From an uncultured Verrucomicrobiae bacterium (GTDB taxonomy: Bacteria; Verrucomicrobiota; Verrucomicrobiia; Chthoniobacterales; UBA10450): a DNA stretch of 64,000 bases. Every line of letters starts with the position of its first letter. Position 1 is the stretch's first letter. The position numbers are program-made. Where the stretch lies: NCBI GenBank assembly GCA_963756875.1, contig CAVWPA010000003.1, positions 1,184,001 to 1,248,000 on the forward strand, written 5' to 3'. Below are positions 45,001 through 51,000 of the stretch, piece after piece.

Positions 45001-48000
45001 TCATGCGGCTGGGGGACGAAAAGGTCGTCGACATCGACGTGATCCCGACGGGAAATATTTTGATCGATCGCGCATTGGGGGTGGGGGGATTTCCCCGAGG
45101 GCGGGTAGTCGAAGTCTATGGACCGGAATCGTCGGGCAAAACAACGCTAACGTTGACTGTCATTGCCCAGGCACAAAAGCGCGGAGGATTGGCCGCATTT
45201 ATCGACGTCGAACATGCGCTTGATCCGCAATACGCCAGAAAACTCGGGGTGAATCTGGACGACTTGCTCGTTTCTCAACCAAGTTCGGGCGAGGAAGCGC
45301 TGCGCATTTGTGAAACTCTCGTTCGCTCGAACGCTCTGGATGTGATCGTGCTGGATTCAGTCGCCGCGCTGGTGACCAGAGCCGAGTTAGAAGGCGAAAT
45401 TGGCGATGTCACGGTGGGCGCGCAAGCGCGACTGATGAGTGCAGCTTTGCGCAAACTGACTTCGCTCATCTCGAAGGCGCGCACCTGCTGTATCTTTACA
45501 AACCAAATCCGCGAGAAGATCGGCGTCATGTTCGGTAACCCGGAAACCACGCCGGGTGGCAAAGCCCTGAAATTTTACGCGAGCATGCGCGTGGACATTC
45601 GCCGCATCGGCGCCATTAAACAGACGGATGGCGTCGTTACCGGCAATCGCACCCGGATCAAAATCGTAAAGAACAAGGTGGCGCCGCCGTTCACAGAAGC
45701 GGAGTTCGACATCATGTATAACGAAGGGATTTCCTCGGTGGGCGCGCTGCTGGATGTGGCGCTGGAAAAACAGATCATCGAAAAACGTGGATCGTGGATG
45801 AACTACAAAGGGACGCAGCTTGCGCAAGGCCGCGACGCTGCCAAGGAGGTGCTGAGAAACGATTCGGCTCTTTACCAGGAAATCGAGACGGCGGTAAAGG
45901 CCAAGCTGGACGAGGAGAAAGAATAGACCCGGAATCGAGGTGCGCGGCGAGGTTTGGCGCATCCCTACCTGTTCCAGATTCGGGAATCGCGACGATTGCT
46001 GACCGGCAGGAATCAACGCTCCAAAAATTGGATCGTGTAAAATACGACGCGGCCCTGTCGATCTGAGTACGGTTTAAAAGAAAAGCAGAGTTAGTAACCC
46101 GCAGAACAAAGTCGTCAGGCGCAAAACCGCGACGCTCGATCCGAAAAGGGCGAAGGCTGGTATGAGCATCCAGCTTTTCAACGCTCCAAGATAAAACTGA
46201 ACAAGTTCCGCTCGGCATTTTGGACCTGCCGCAGCATGACCGGGACAGAGCGACATTTCTAGTTGGAAATCTGCGCACGCACCGTCAATTTTCCGCTATC
46301 GTAATGCCGAGGAGAGGTGACATGACGAAGCACGAATGCCGAATGACGAAGGAAGCTGAAAGCCCGAATGACCACGCGTTCCCGCACGGGGCCTGTTTCT
46401 TCGCCTTGGGCTTCGTCATTCATTCGTCATTTGCCCCGTGATGACATCCGCGCAGATCAGACAATCGTTCCTCGATTTCTTTCGCGGGAAGGGGCACACG
46501 ATCGTGCCTTCGTCCCCGCTGATGCCCGATTCGCCGAATCTGCTTTTCACCAACGCCGGCATGAACCAGTTCGTTCCGATTTTTCTCGGACAACAAAAGC
46601 CGCCCTGGACTCCACCGCGCGTGGTCGACACCCAAAAGTGTATCCGCGCGGGCGGCAAACATAACGATCTCGAAGACGTCGGGCTCGACACGTATCACCA
46701 CACGTTCTTCGAGATGCTCGGCAACTGGAGCTTCGGCGATTATTTCAAGAAGGAAGCGATTGAATGGGCGTGGGAACTGGTGGTCGATCGCTGGGAATTT
46801 CCGGCGCAACGTCTTTACGCCACCGTTTACAAACCCGGCGCCGGTGAACCAAGCGAATTCGATCAGGAAGCGCACGATTGTTGGGCCCGATTGTTTCGCG
46901 ACGCCGATCTCGATCCGGCCGTTCACATCGTAAACGGCGGCAAAGCCGACAATTTCTGGATGATGGGCGATACCGGACCGTGTGGTCCATGCTCAGAGGT
47001 ACACGTCGATCTTACGCCGGAGGGCGACACGCGCGGCGCGCTGGTGAACAAGAACGATCCGCGCTGCATTGAGATTTGGAACCTGGTTTTCATCCAGTTC
47101 AACGCTCAACCTGTAGCCGGGGTTGGTGACCCCGGCCGGGTCGAGTATGTCCCGCTGGGGGCGCGGCACGTCGATACCGGGATGGGTTTCGAGCGGGTCA
47201 CCGCGATCGTTCAAGGCACAAAAAACCTCAGCGATTTTTCCGGCACAATTTCCAATTACGAAACGGACATCTTCCGTCCGATTTTCGACGAGTTGGAAAA
47301 ACTCAGTGGGAAGAAATATGCAAGCACGCTGCCTGATTCTCCGGATCGGGGAGCGCACGCGCCCTCGCGTGCAGCGGTTGGCGCCTCGCCAAGCGCATCC
47401 GGCGAGGCGCCGGATGCAACACCCGAGGCGGGTGTGCTCCCCAGAAACGAGCAGGAAAAGATCGACGTGGCGTTTCGCGTGATCGCCGATCACATCCGCG
47501 CGCTCAGTTTCGCGATTGCCGATGGAATTATTCCTTCGAACGAAGGGCGCGGCTATGTTTTGCGCCGGATCCTGCGCCGCGCGGTCCGCTATGGCCGCAC
47601 CCTCGGGTTTCACGAGCCGTTCTTTTTCAAACTGGTCGACACTGTGGCAAAAACAATGGGCGACGTTTTTCCGGAGGTCCGCGCCAAACGAAACACGATT
47701 AAGGAGGCAATTCACCGTGAGGAAGAAGCGTTTAACAGAACGCTGGATGAGGGGATTCACATGTTCGATGCGGCGATGGTGTTCGATGCGGAGAAGGCAA
47801 AGACGGGGCTTTCAGTTGAGAAAGCCGTTTCTGGCGAGTTCGCTTTCAAACTCTACGATACCTACGGATTTCCTCTGGATTTGACGGAACTGATGGCGCG
47901 GGAGCGCGGGCTTACTGTCGACGTGGTCGGCTTTGAGAGACTGATGGAAGAACAGCGCGAACGCGCGCGCAAAGCCCAGAAGAAGGAGGCGATCAGCGTT

Positions 48001-51000
48001 GAGCAGGGGAAGTTGACGGCGGCTCCGACGAAATTCCTTGGCTACGATTTTCTCGAGACTGAGGCTGTCGTGGAGACAGTTTTGTCCGGGAAAAAGCCCG
48101 ACGAGGTGAACGTTGTTCTCGATCAAACGCCGCTCTATGCGGAGATGGGCGGACAGGTCGGCGACCGCGGTTTGCTTCATGTCCCAGGACACGATCGCAC
48201 CGAAGTCGGTCAACTTCGCGTCATCGATACGCAAAAACGAGGCGACGTTTTTGTTCATCGAGCGACGCTGACCAAGGGGCGCGCGCCGGAGCCGGGTGAA
48301 GCGGTGCGGGTCTCGGTCGATGCCGAACGACGCCGCGTGATTCAAGGACATCATACGGTCACGCATCTGTTGCATTGGGCGCTGCACGAAGTCGTCTCGC
48401 GCGACGCCGTGCAAAAGGGGAGTTACGTCGGTCCTGACAAGTTGACGTTCGATTTCAGCAGTGCGCCCCTCACGCCGCAACAGAAGCGTGACGTGGAAAG
48501 ATTGGTGAACGAGAGAATCCGCGACGGTGCGCCGGTTTCATGGACCGAGATCCCGTACAAGGAAGCGAAACAGCGCAAGGACATCATCCAATTTTTCGGC
48601 GAAAAATACGGAGATACGGTCCGCGTATTGCAAATCGGCGGGACACCTCGCGAACTGGACGGTTATTCGATGGAGTTATGTGGTGGAACGCATGTGAGAT
48701 CGACAAACGAAATTGGGCCGTTCCGGATCGTGAAGGAAGAAGCGATCGCCGCGGGAATTCGCCGGATCGAAGCGGTCGCGGGCGAGGCGACGCGTGCGTG
48801 GGCCAGACAGGAAGCGGCTCGGCAAGAGGAGAGGTTCGAAACGCTAAGGCGCAAAAAGACCGATTTGCCGCCGATGCCCGGTTTTATGGATGAAGCGGAA
48901 ACATCTGTGATGCTGGAACAGATTGATGCGCGAGCGGCACATTTGGGAAAAGCAGATCTCGATGTCCGCGAGTGGGAAAAGAAGACTGCCAAAGCGAGCG
49001 AGGCAGACCTGAGAAGCCGCGCCGCTGAGATCGCAAGCGAACTGGCGTCGTCGCATGCTGGAAAACATTCATTAGTGGCAGAAGTGCCGGACGGAAACGG
49101 CAAGTTGCTTCAGGCGATTGCCGACGTGCTGAAGTCGCAATTCAAGGGACCGATTTTTCTTGCCGGCGCGGCGGAAGGTCGGGCGGCGTTAGTCGTCGTG
49201 GTTCCAAAAGAGCTCACGTCGAAGTTTCAAGCGAACAAGATTATTCAGGCGGTTGCGCCAATTGTTGGCGGCAAAGGCGGTGGCCGGCCGGAAAACGCTC
49301 AAGGCGGCGGCACCGACACGAGCAAGATCGCGGAAGCATTGGCGAAAGTGCGGGAGCTGTTGCGCTGAATCGCGCTCGAAATTACGGAGCGCTTACGCTT
49401 GGAGTGCGAGCGTGTTTGGCAATGAGTTTCGGATGCCAGCTTAAAGGCGTGTGGTAAAGCGACGGCTCATTTTCGTGCTCGCCCTGAATGACGCAAAGGA
49501 ATTCGTCATTCGTAAGCCAGCAAGGGTCCCGGGCGAAATCGTTCTTCCCGGTTATGCGCACCGCCTTTTCCGTTGCCTTTTTCATGACAGGAGAATTTCA
49601 GTTCGATTCGAGGTTAACAGATTTTGCGATGACGCGTCAGTTCACTGTCGGAAAGAGCGCGTTTTTGATCAGTCGCTTCAGGTTCTTGCCGTCGATGGAT
49701 ATTCGATAAATGGACGCGGATTTTTCTCCGGAGGGTTGAGATAGGAAAAGGACGTTGTCATTATCGATCCAACAGCCGCTCCAGCCGAAAATCGTCGGAC
49801 GTGTGATGCGCACGCCTCTACCCGTCGCGATGTCGAGTGTCCAAAGCGCGGGCGGCGGGCCATCCCAATCAGTGCGAGTCGCTTTCTCGGCCATATCCAC
49901 CGAAAGAAGCAGGCGCTTCCCATCGGGCGAAGCAGCGATGCGCCCATCCGCGTTCATTCCGCCGCCCGGTATGATCTTCTCGATTTTCCATTGCGCGACC
50001 ACAGTTCCGTCGAGGCCGATTTGATAGATATTGGTCGTATCCTGGCAAAAAATCGATTGCCCATTACGGGCCCAACAAGGCGAGTAAAGAGTTGCCTGGT
50101 GTTGTGCGCCTCTTTTCAGGATTTGGAAATCGGTCCCGTTCGCAGCGATTGTAGCAAGGTTCCAAACATCATTTTGCCGCAGCATAAAGAGAATGCGTTT
50201 TCCGTCGGGCGCCCAGGCTGGATAATAAGAGTTATCGCCCGGTATTGTTGTAACGATTGCCGTTTCGCCAGTTGCCACATCTGCGACAGCGATGTGTTGT
50301 TCATAAGTAGTCGGCGATTTCTCCACGGTGGTGAACGCTACCTGCGTTCCATCCGGTGAAATCGCCGGGAAAATTCCATCGGCAATTTTTTTCTCGCCGG
50401 TTCCATCGAGATTTGCCACCCAGACGGCATCATTGCGCTGGAACGCGACGAGAGATGCAGCGCCCGATGCGTCAACCAGGGAAGCGACCAGGATCGAAAT
50501 CCAGAATGCTCTTTTGTTCATGGCAGGGCCAGCGTGACAAAGAGAGTGGTGACTACCGCCATCGTCAGGACGATCACGTAAACAAACCCGCCGAACAGGA
50601 ACTTGGCAACGCTGATAAACCAGCCCTGTCGATAAACACGGCGGATTGAAATAAAAATTTCAATCAAGGCTGCCAGGCTAAGGATATTGCAGACGGGCGC
50701 TGTAAGATTCGGCGCGCTCTGGTTAAGCCCCATTCCGATCAGGGTGATCAGGATGACGTAGAGATAAGCGAAGCTGTGAATATGCAGCGCGTAGATCAGG
50801 TGATCGATGTAGAAAATGCGTCGCCGGATATAGAGAATCTTAAGCACGAAAGCGAAGAGCGGGATGCAGCACAGCATCATGTAAGGCAGATTGCTGATCA
50901 CCGTAATAAGGAACAACTGCGCGTTGCTCCCATGCTCGCCGATCTTCTCCTTGGCACGGGCCTCGATCCACTTCTCAAAAGGAGTTGAAGAAGTTTCACG

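Follow-up and report, generated by a model that had tools for sequence, protein, structure and literature searches.

An in-frame REPIN in the alanyl-tRNA synthetase gene of an uncultured Verrucomicrobiae bacterium, at a recurrently occupied loop

The alanyl-tRNA synthetase (AlaRS) gene in the window analysed here, a 64,000-nucleotide stretch of the genome of an uncultured soil Verrucomicrobiae bacterium, carries a piece of the genome's REP repeat inside its open frame, which raises the question of how the repeat came to lie there and why it has stayed. The gene (46438–49368, + strand; 976 aa) starts with GTG, and the start given in the initial annotation, 46441, is the next ATG. Its product is a class II AlaRS in which the catalytic, editing (SAD) and C-terminal DHHA1 domains are all complete (Pfam tRNA-synt_2c, tRNA_SAD and DHHA1; the first match covers profile positions 1–552 of 552); solved AlaRS chains match it at E = 4e-112, and the gene is single-copy, with one match in the whole genome (G000). 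The human AlaRS chain 5knn_A has no counterpart to query residues 294–326, and comparison with it puts the insertion point in the linker ahead of the helix bearing the AFRVIADH motif. This loop (site 1) lies between the catalytic core and the first helix of the tRNA-recognition domain. Another loop, site 2 (residues about 444–464; 47767–47829, + strand), is empty here and is the RAYT position in the window's own family.

A REP-encoded insert had been placed at about residue 305, and it is indeed there: a 95-nt in-frame REPIN (47348–47442, + strand; residues 304–335) of two inverted REP-A units with zero spacer (nhmmer units 47346–47396 on the + and 47394–47446 on the - strand, E = 1.4e-9 and 1.2e-4). 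The left unit (47348–47395, +) comprises the head GGGGAGC (47348–47354), hairpin 1 (47355–47372) and hairpin 2 (47375–47395); the right unit (47396–47442, -) is inverted and comprises hairpin 2' (47396–47416), hairpin 1' (47419–47435) and the tail GCTCCCC (47436–47442). The arms are unequal. Hairpin 1 of the left unit carries the REP-A master sequence unchanged, and bases 47348–47372 match the genome's REP core at 25 of 25 positions, whereas hairpin 1' has a variant stem (ACACCCG/CGGGTGT) with one other copy in the genome (C1:682880); the right arm, at 47416–47442, is the inverted unit with this stem. The left arm is read as GAHAPSRA after the leader GATTCTYCGGATY, and the ACACCCG-variant unit is followed by AGA; judging by the uninterrupted frame and by indels that preserve it, the insert would encode about 32 Gly/Ala/Pro/Ser-rich residues. 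The doublet is a REPIN in having two close inverted REP units, but not in location, since it is not extragenic and lies in frame inside an ORF.

REP-A is a multi-copy family. An nhmmer census of the genome gives 131 units, more than the 112 first counted by blastn, and 55 convergent pairs of 101–228 nt, of which the AlaRS pair is the shortest; the 25-nt core has 13 exact copies in the genome and 29 within 2 mismatches, and a genome search with the reversed core pattern as control gave 0 matches. Forty-four units fall in 25 open frames of at least 250 aa. As had been cautioned, some may lie outside the true ORF: 4 of the 16 Pfam-scanned frames have units N-terminal of the first domain (T2SSE, SDF, amylase and TonB plug). 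Of the pairs reported inside genes, those of UvrA (three, in an open frame of 1488 aa), of SMC and of a DnaE-type polymerase were found; ThiC has one unit by our model. The window holds three further REP-A REPINs: one between two minus-strand ORFs (14734–14875, nhmmer), used below as a control site, one between convergent ORFs (26866–27013), and one at the beginning of a TonB-dependent receptor ORF or ahead of it (60119–60285; Plug domain at aa 137–243 of the open frame). REP-A units also flank two RAYTs of this genome, one free (C3:1631734–1632021) and one embedded in MetH, and the other four Y1_Tnp loci have no REP-A unit within 1.5 kb. Because the flanks of both RAYTs are oriented + then -, as REPIN pairs are, a REPIN looks like a RAYT unit minus its ORF.

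The initial annotation's observation on MetH is confirmed. REP units at aa 370 and 546 enclose an embedded RAYT, and at aa 1179/1212 there is a REP pair without one, where P0245, P0246 and P0248 carry a second RAYT. The doublet and the flanks of the relatives' RAYT have both outer frames equal and the junction nearly so; these frames and approximate junctions fit RAYT loss in place. The embedded domains score above the curated Pfam Y1_Tnp (PF01797) cut-off of 23 bits (P0008 24.4, P0048 25.2, P0106 25.8, P0112 28.8; our MetH frame 29.4). By eye, the P0048 RAYT has MPDHTHILF and FLYICRNPW and that of our MetH has MPDHVHILL and YRYICRNPW, stretches that we take to be the HUH motif and the catalytic Tyr.

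RAYTs also sit in the AlaRS of many relatives, which were drawn by similarity-seeded searches (best 120 matches of each). With a site-1 RAYT as seed, 78 of the 108 AlaRS among the matches listed have their RAYT at site 1, as a further 8 probably do; these AlaRS come from distant relatives and are 70–76% identical to our AlaRS in the N-terminal part and 46–61% in the C-terminal part. With a close relative's RAYT as seed, 117 of the 121 AlaRS among the matches listed have one at site 2 only, while P0121 has RAYTs at sites 1 and 2, P0124 at sites 2 and 3, and two more at site 1 only. Among the matches listed in a scan of 121 genomes of the family, no insert at site 1 exceeds about 60 aa, and the open frames of more than 1100 aa with both match halves listed all break at query residue ~447/460. 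The idea that relatives carry a RAYT at this very point holds for distant Verrucomicrobiota, but in the organism's own family the RAYT is at the second loop, near residue 445–464.

What occupies site 1 changes among relatives. Among 224 AlaRS the site is empty in 90, of type B in 44, C in 27, D in 19, A in 15 and of other types in 26, and holds a RAYT in 3, all deep-branching; these states interleave on the AlaRS tree (FastTree of close sequences, midpoint rooting). At least eight unrelated palindromic element types alternate there even among close relatives: our AlaRS carries A, the 86%-identical P0004 and P0005 carry B, P0008 has D, and P0006 has C and B nested. An insert is present at 17 of 22 typed family loci. 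Sixteen of these were folded as DNA; 15 gave -13.7 to -52.9 kcal/mol and L013 gave -12.0, whereas two empty sites gave -0.4 and -0.7. Elements turn over at this loop, which we read as a recurrent and permissive hot spot. Recombination could also give a mosaic of site-1 types without repeated insertion. At the intergenic control spacer, the orthologues hold a REP-A REPIN in G097, the same one flipped in G072, and unrelated palindromes in G016, G051 and G101; this turnover and the flipped copy are at most an indirect sign of mobilisation by the RAYT. In the family locus L015 and the protein P0213, site 1 holds a doublet of the REP type GSA..V../..RD..Q..RD, which flanks most site-1 RAYTs elsewhere.

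On balance we lean towards an old REPIN insertion at this recurrent, permissive hot spot, constrained at the nucleotide level. The element most likely arrived in the AlaRS loop as a REPIN, a non-autonomous doublet of a sort presumed to move by means of a RAYT transposase, and not as a RAYT unit whose ORF was lost afterwards; insertion was probably a single event, predating the split of at least five genera of the Chthoniobacterales-type family. The same loop would have been hit again and again, receiving other palindromes, nested pairs or a whole REP-RAYT-REP unit according to lineage, and the survivors would be those that kept the frame, held no stop codon and lay in a tolerant loop. In a single-copy essential gene, imprecise deletion presumably cannot remove such an insert. 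Parsimony favours this course: the family's closest deep-branching relatives are empty at site 1 (12–16 aa) and have their RAYT at site 2, and the AlaRS searched from the family and from these outgroups showed no RAYT at site 1.

The history first proposed for the insert, that a REP-RAYT-REP unit once stood in frame at site 1 and an internal deletion left its two REP units, strikes us as possible but the less probable course. The arms abut with zero spacer, an outcome equally expected of a clean internal deletion, and the + then - flanks of the genome's own two REP-A RAYTs have exactly the arrangement of the REPIN. Site-1 RAYTs are common among the AlaRS listed in the search seeded with one, and RAYTs of the REP-A clade, with REP-A flanks, occupy the loop in six proteins and at locus L088. 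At L088, Leu-Pro codons precede the first REP unit, which is read in the frame of our left arm, though leader, right frame and right-arm type are not shared. The L015/P0213 doublet, the MetH doublet, and site 2 in one small clade, with a RAYT in P0008, a lone REP-A unit in P0006 and nothing in the others, also agree with RAYT loss. Yet the bearers of REP-A-flanked site-1 RAYTs lie far outside the family, and in P0242, P0244, P0247 and P0341 the left arm is read in a different frame (GEHTRPRV, where ours gives GAHAPSRA) and the right arm is of the master type, not our variant. The family shows no site-1 RAYT among the matches listed, and each of at least eight element types would require its own RAYT gained and then lost; the intergenic control site, which has no RAYT, shows equal turnover. 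REP-A doublets lie also in UvrA, SMC and DnaE and near residue 1004 of P0244, places where we know of no RAYT. Nor is the AlaRS insert a decaying remnant, for its DNA is more conserved than the surrounding gene (below). RAYT loss in place fits what is seen in MetH, but with site-1 turnover, equal turnover at the control site and empty outgroups it is not established for AlaRS.

A 110-nt block (47336–47445, + strand) recurs with 82–97% identity at the same AlaRS position in nine other genomes, from four further genera; it was the best match in each (two candidates were scored per genome) and lies within the AlaRS match in 6 of the 9, which are all those placeable. The hetero-arm REPIN is present at identical AlaRS junctions in 10 genomes of five genera (9 genomes, still of five genera, without G125, which is flagged unpublished), with the same design and with indels in threes. 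Of the 32 third-codon-position columns in the REPIN, 19 do not vary, as opposed to 3 of 50 in each flank, and their mean pairwise identity is 0.85 in the REPIN and 0.53 in the flanks (by pairs, 0.79–0.97 inside and 0.46–0.50 outside). Under a fold of four hairpins, 95.4% of cells are paired and five pairs have changed on both sides; none of 500 shuffles reaches this covariation and slid controls gave 0–1, although kinship of the sequences alone can beat shuffles. As sequence and hairpins are far steadier than the flanking synonymous sites, a constraint acts on DNA or RNA and not on the peptide alone, and we infer that the conservation reflects selection.

Low divergence and paired changes might instead come from mutational homogenisation, by hairpin-templated correction within the palindrome or gene conversion from other REP-A copies, with no role for the host; this we regard as a minority prospect. 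Template switching can give palindromes paired changes in one step, and the relatedness that can defeat the shuffles fits as well. The master of left hairpin 1 has exact copies in each genome (13 in G101, 3 in G097, 2 in G118 and 13 in G000), so that a donor pool for conversion exists. On the other hand, the variant right stem has one other copy in this genome, and with two candidates scored in each genome the abutting hetero-arm design gave no second full-length match; both are nonetheless conserved through the five genera. Hairpin-2 stems differ among lineages, so no single master has overwritten them, and the orthologous intergenic REPIN is more diverged, or replaced, over the same span. 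That the insert is an ordinary low-complexity linker, REP-like by chance or composition, can be set aside almost entirely: its Gly/Ala/Pro/Ser-rich peptide resembles many linkers, but the 25/25 match to a repeat with 13 exact copies (reversed control 0), the inverted second unit and both nhmmer E values refute this, and the empty sites of relatives are unstructured stretches of 9–16 aa.

Other mobile sequences are known to persist within proteins. Inteins are in-frame inserts in essential proteins, derived from mobile elements, whose imprecise loss would be lethal; they insert in conserved active-site motifs, whereas the AlaRS insert is in a variable loop, and no sign of protein splicing was seen here, though no search aimed at intein motifs was made. 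Rickettsia palindromic elements are small mobile repeats read as extra peptide segments of proteins that still function, but they are another element family in another bacterial phylum, and we know of none with an associated RAYT embedded at the same site. Their in-frame occurrence in ORFs is cited by Di Nocera et al. 2013 (PMC3733652), and REPs inside ORFs are likewise known already: the relevant passages of that paper describe REPs wholly inside ORFs in several species, often in replication/repair genes (DnaE is named) and some in tRNA synthetases, count the verrucomicrobium O. terrae as REP-rich, and argue against functional constraint. Those passages do not note a site common to REPs and in-frame RAYTs, element-type turnover at one codon position, or cross-genus nucleotide conservation. 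The derivation of REPINs from REPs flanking a transposase is a hypothesis already in print (PMC3337134). The REPIN-RAYT systems (Bertels and Rainey 2011, PMC3116915; PMC3337134) share with ours the inverted doublet, the multi-copy family, an HUH/Y1 transposase flanked by the same REPs, a conserved master sequence and apparently vertical inheritance; unlike them, the doublet here lies in essential coding sequence and is presumably translated, its two arms differ and adjoin each other directly, and RAYTs are embedded in frame in host proteins of many relatives. Transposases of the HUH/Y1 type in IS200/IS605 elements recognise subterminal hairpins, with seamless excision and target-specific insertion (PMC6006769). 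By analogy, such insertion would fit the repeated use of one AlaRS site, though the mobility of these elements is deduced.

In-frame RAYTs in AlaRS, MetH and ThrRS are found in many of the relatives studied here, and we found no published account of them in these proteins. One speculative extension, to which we give rather little credence, is that loops of essential single-copy proteins (AlaRS sites 1 and 2, two MetH linkers and ThrRS) serve as refuges for REP-RAYT elements in Verrucomicrobiota, from which an element cannot be purged because imprecise deletion is lethal. The AlaRS REPIN would then be kept as a structured element acting in cis, as DNA or RNA whose four hairpins are held by compensatory change; it might, for example, be a protected RAYT recognition site or a master copy for the REPIN population, or alternatively its fold may pace transcription or translation between the domains of AlaRS.

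The alanyl-tRNA synthetase (AlaRS) gene lies at 46438–49368 on the forward strand and encodes a protein of 976 amino acids with all three of the expected Pfam domains. No other AlaRS match occurs in the genome (2.69 Mb in three contigs), and the closest homologues of the protein have source names that include Chthoniobacterales and Candidatus Udaeobacter (the open reading frame just upstream, 44790–45926 on the same strand, appears by eye to be RecA-like, with the P-loop GPESSGKTT). Alignments show a REP-A REPIN, an inverted doublet of REP units, that sits in frame in an AlaRS loop after the motif YASTLP (47348–47442, 95 nt, residues 304–335). 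Its left part consists of the head GGGGAGC, hairpin 1 (GCACGCG-CCCT-CGCGTGC) and hairpin 2; the right part is the inverted counterpart, with hairpin 2', hairpin 1' with a variant stem (ACACCCG/CGGGTGT) and the tail GCTCCCC, and the two parts abut with zero spacer. The left 25 nt are the commonest REP core of the genome, which has 13 exact copies and 29 within two mismatches (0 for a reversed control). Ahead of the head, at 47336–47347, is a 12–13 nt leader (GATTCTCCGGATC) that is co-conserved in most orthologues; it reads GATTCTYCGGATY ahead of the type-A AlaRS REPIN and is no part of the ends that REP-A units usually have in other places of the genome (..TCCGGGGAGC). Sequence alignment to the solved human AlaRS chain 5knn_A leaves query residues 294–326 unmatched and picks up again in the linker right before the helix bearing the AFRVIADH motif; the loop was placed by this alignment because an AlphaFold2 model of residues 1–481 (40-row alignment; mean pLDDT 48, pTM 0.45) was too poor to use.

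A profile search finds 131 REP-A units in the genome, with 55 convergent pairs of 101–228 nt, among which the AlaRS REPIN is the shortest, and 21 singletons. The genome has six Y1_Tnp loci, and at two of them a REP-A unit stands on each side, one in + and one in − orientation: a free-standing RAYT (REP-associated Y1_Tnp transposase) at C3:1631734 and the RAYT embedded in MetH. Since its units are inverted, its family is multi-copy and REP-A-flanked RAYTs are present, the AlaRS insert is, as far as sequence can tell, a fit to the definition of a REPIN in all respects but extragenic location. The free RAYT (C3:1631622–1632203) and the MetH-embedded one (C2:26117–26700) are close paralogues with near-identical flank translations, and the 225-aa open frame of the free copy runs through both REP arms too. 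Inside 25 open frames of at least 250 aa lie 44 of the 131 units, although in 4 of the 16 frames scanned with Pfam the units precede the first domain, on its N-terminal side, and may not belong to the real gene. The initial annotation had placed translated REP units in several conserved proteins, and most of these are borne out. In MetH, in-frame units at aa 370 and 546 enclose the embedded RAYT, and another pair, with no RAYT between, is found at aa 1179/1212; UvrA, a 1488-aa open frame at C3:700928–705391, has three in-frame pairs (aa 182/213, 694/724 and 1121/1169), and SMC and a DnaE-type polymerase have one in-frame pair each. ThiC also contains in-frame REP-A, but as one unit and not as the pair that had been claimed.

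The 110-nt block 47336–47445 finds its top match, at 82–97% identity, in nine other genomes, which belong to genera g35 (G072, G125, G097), g17 (G016, G101, G161, G162), g29 (G051) and g25 (G082), and this match lies inside the AlaRS match in all six of those with comparable coordinates. The second-best match in the nine genomes is a single arm or a REPIN about 70–75% alike; two candidates were scored per genome, so there may be further copies. Unequal arms, zero spacer and both junctions are common to all ten AlaRS REPINs, whose lengths differ by multiples of three (without G125, which is flagged as unpublished, nine genomes of the same five genera remain). On each side of the REPIN the AlaRS codons show the usual wobble, with 3 invariant third positions out of 50 and a mean pairwise identity of 0.53; within it 19 of 32 are invariant, identity is 0.85 and three-base periodicity is absent. 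Over the whole gene in three genomes, third-position identity is 0.46–0.50 outside the insert and 0.79–0.97 inside it. These comparisons show an insert that is conserved and not decaying, and a REPIN that is, by this measure, old and constrained at the nucleotide level. When the ten orthologues are set against a structure made of an outer stem and four local hairpins, 95.4% of the cells are paired, a percentage favoured by the structure's having been drawn from the same sequences. Five pairs of this structure change on both sides, which none of 500 shuffles reaches (slid controls give 0–1), though kinship of sequences can inflate such shuffle-based scores, and template switching in palindromes can produce paired changes without selection. 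RNAalifold, given the ten orthologues, chose a long arm-to-arm hairpin with 0 compensatory pairs.

Alignment of the 120 best homologues delimits two variable loops in AlaRS, site 1 after YASTLP (residues ~300–341 here) and site 2 (~444–464), and the four RAYT-bearing proteins among them all have the RAYT at site 2. A search seeded with a site-2 RAYT gave 342 matches, the best 120 all AlaRS; among the 121 proteins examined, 117 have a RAYT at site 2 only, P0121 has one at sites 1 and 2, P0124 at site 2 and at a third site (near query residue 606–616), and two proteins at site 1 only. In a sample of 121 genomes of the family, all listed open frames of >1100 aa with both match halves break at query ~447/460, and no large gap at site 1 is found among the matches listed. 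A search seeded with the site-1 RAYT of P0233 and limited to proteins of 631–2011 aa found 1391 with an embedded RAYT domain. The best 120 of these (matches examined: P0238–P0353) comprise 108 AlaRS and, from their Pfam lists, 12 others, 3 of them MetH and the rest mostly ThrRS. The RAYT is at site 1 in 78 of the 108 AlaRS, and probably also in 8 of 10 unclear cases. Bearers of a site-1 RAYT have source names that include Verrucomicrobiae, subdivision 3 and Limisphaerales, and are 70–76% identical to the AlaRS studied here in the N-terminal part and 46–61% in the C-terminal part. Thus the proposal that relatives carry a whole RAYT at the very point of the REPIN holds for distant Verrucomicrobiota, whereas among the matches listed from the bacterium's own family the RAYT is at site 2. 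Proteins P0121, P0238, P0239, P0242–P0244 and P0247 are AlaRS of 1290–1408 aa with two in-frame RAYTs, at sites 1 and 2.

Translated inverted REP arms flank the site-1 RAYTs, and most are of a family other than REP-A (GSATVPVASVGVPPTES ... AARDAQQGDRDGRAP); REP-A arms, read as GEHTRPRV ... AREGACAP, surround that of P0242, P0244, P0247 and P0341. In a FastTree of RAYT domains, read from leaf order only, RAYTs group by REP family and not by the place they occupy in a host protein; among those of REP-A, the copies in MetH (sites a and b), the free one and the copies in AlaRS (sites 1 and 2) adjoin. A RAYT-less REP-A doublet (GEHTRPRV...AREGACGPQ) is also present in the C-terminal half of AlaRS in P0244 (near residue 1004), P0242, P0247 and P0239, a position at which no protein seen has a RAYT. 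Many RAYT-less relatives have site-2 inserts of 30–95 aa that are unrelated and do not appear to come from REPs (e.g. P0017, P0057 and P0095).

We lean, by a modest degree of confidence, towards insertion of a REPIN at a recurrent hot spot as the origin of the AlaRS insert. The initial annotation had instead read it as the footprint of RAYT loss in place, the flanking REP units being left as a doublet, which we consider possible but rather doubtful. Several facts speak for such loss: the + then − arrangement of the REPIN is that of the REP-A flanks around the genome's own RAYTs, REP-A RAYTs occupy site 1 in other lineages, and at site 2 one small clade includes a member with a RAYT (P0008), one with just a single REP-A unit (P0006) and others with nothing. 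One locus, L088 (in order: first REP-A unit, second unit, RAYT, full REPIN), has a REP-A unit after the Leu-Pro codons in the reading frame seen here, but differs in leader, right junction, right frame and right-arm type. Against loss in place, P0242, P0244, P0247 and P0341 read the left arm in a frame other than the one here, and their right arm is of the master type. Site 1 is also empty in the deep-branching AlaRS closest to the family, whose RAYT lies at site 2.

The states of site 1 also weigh against loss in place. Among 224 AlaRS it is empty in 90, holds palindromic inserts of type B in 44, C in 27, D in 19 and A in 15, something else in 26 and a RAYT in 3; these states are interleaved on the AlaRS tree and differ among close relatives (type A here, B in P0004 and P0005, which are 86% identical, D in P0008, and C and B nested in P0006). 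At the DNA level 17 of 22 typed family loci have an insert at the site-1 codon position, and by inspection these are of at least eight sequence types, for each of which loss in place would need a RAYT of its own family there. When 16 of the inserts were folded as DNA, 15 gave −13.7 to −52.9 kcal/mol and one was weak (−12.0); two empty loci gave −0.4 and −0.7 kcal/mol. The same turnover is seen at an intergenic control REPIN (14734–14875): in the orthologous spacer G097 has a REP-A REPIN, G072 has that element flipped, and G016, G051 and G101 have palindromes of unrelated kinds, so turnover is not peculiar to RAYT sites. The flipped pair (L083 of G097 and L084 of G072), from two species of one genus, has the same REPIN at the same spot in opposite orientation, which points to inversion, or to excision then re-insertion.

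Taken together, the evidence on both sides favours REPIN insertion at AlaRS site 1. At MetH site b, on the other hand, loss in place is regarded as the better reading: the doublet here (LGSARVSRAG...NTRDACAPQ) and the relatives' RAYT flanks (GSARGSRAV...[RAYT]...AACAPR/Q) have both outer frames in common and almost equal junctions. The initial observation is thus confirmed, and its interpretation is supported in part. An assembly artefact at a repeat is rejected, since the same in-frame insert is present in 10 separate genomes.

Under the insertion reading, RAYT-type single-strand transposition would have placed the REPIN in AlaRS, with survival limited to insertions in a tolerant loop that leave the frame intact and bring in no stop. 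The essential host gene may then shield it from imprecise deletion, and its hairpins may matter to some process; candidates are recognition by the RAYT, replication or transcription, and folding of the mRNA.

REPs within open reading frames, including repair and replication genes, tRNA synthetases and the verrucomicrobium O. terrae, and the in-frame read-through of Rickettsia palindromic elements are described in an earlier report (PMC3733652). That REPINs arose from REPs at the flanks of an IS200-like ancestor has been put forward in print as a hypothesis (PMC3337134). A search with most subscription journals outside its reach turned up no publication that deals with in-frame RAYTs in AlaRS, MetH or ThrRS. 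What appears to be new is that REPINs of many families and complete RAYT units share one codon position, the scale of that sharing, and the conservation, at the level of nucleic acid, of a REPIN that lies in coding sequence. Source annotations already label embedded-RAYT proteins as fusions. As a practical point for annotation, pipelines call them "alanine--tRNA ligase-related protein" or use fusion names, and one HUH/Y1 family survey threw out over-long RAYT proteins, taking them for fusions or errors (PMC6006769). REPINs and RAYTs have been argued to be long-lived and vertically inherited, but the means of their persistence and the source of new REPINs are open questions. A single AlaRS codon position records many independent occupancies: it may be empty or hold one of at least eight palindromic types, nested elements or a whole transposase. 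Such a natural series allows insertion, replacement and loss to be put in order along a tree, and the AlaRS REPIN offers a case of a mobile repeat in coding sequence that is conserved as nucleic acid and not as protein.
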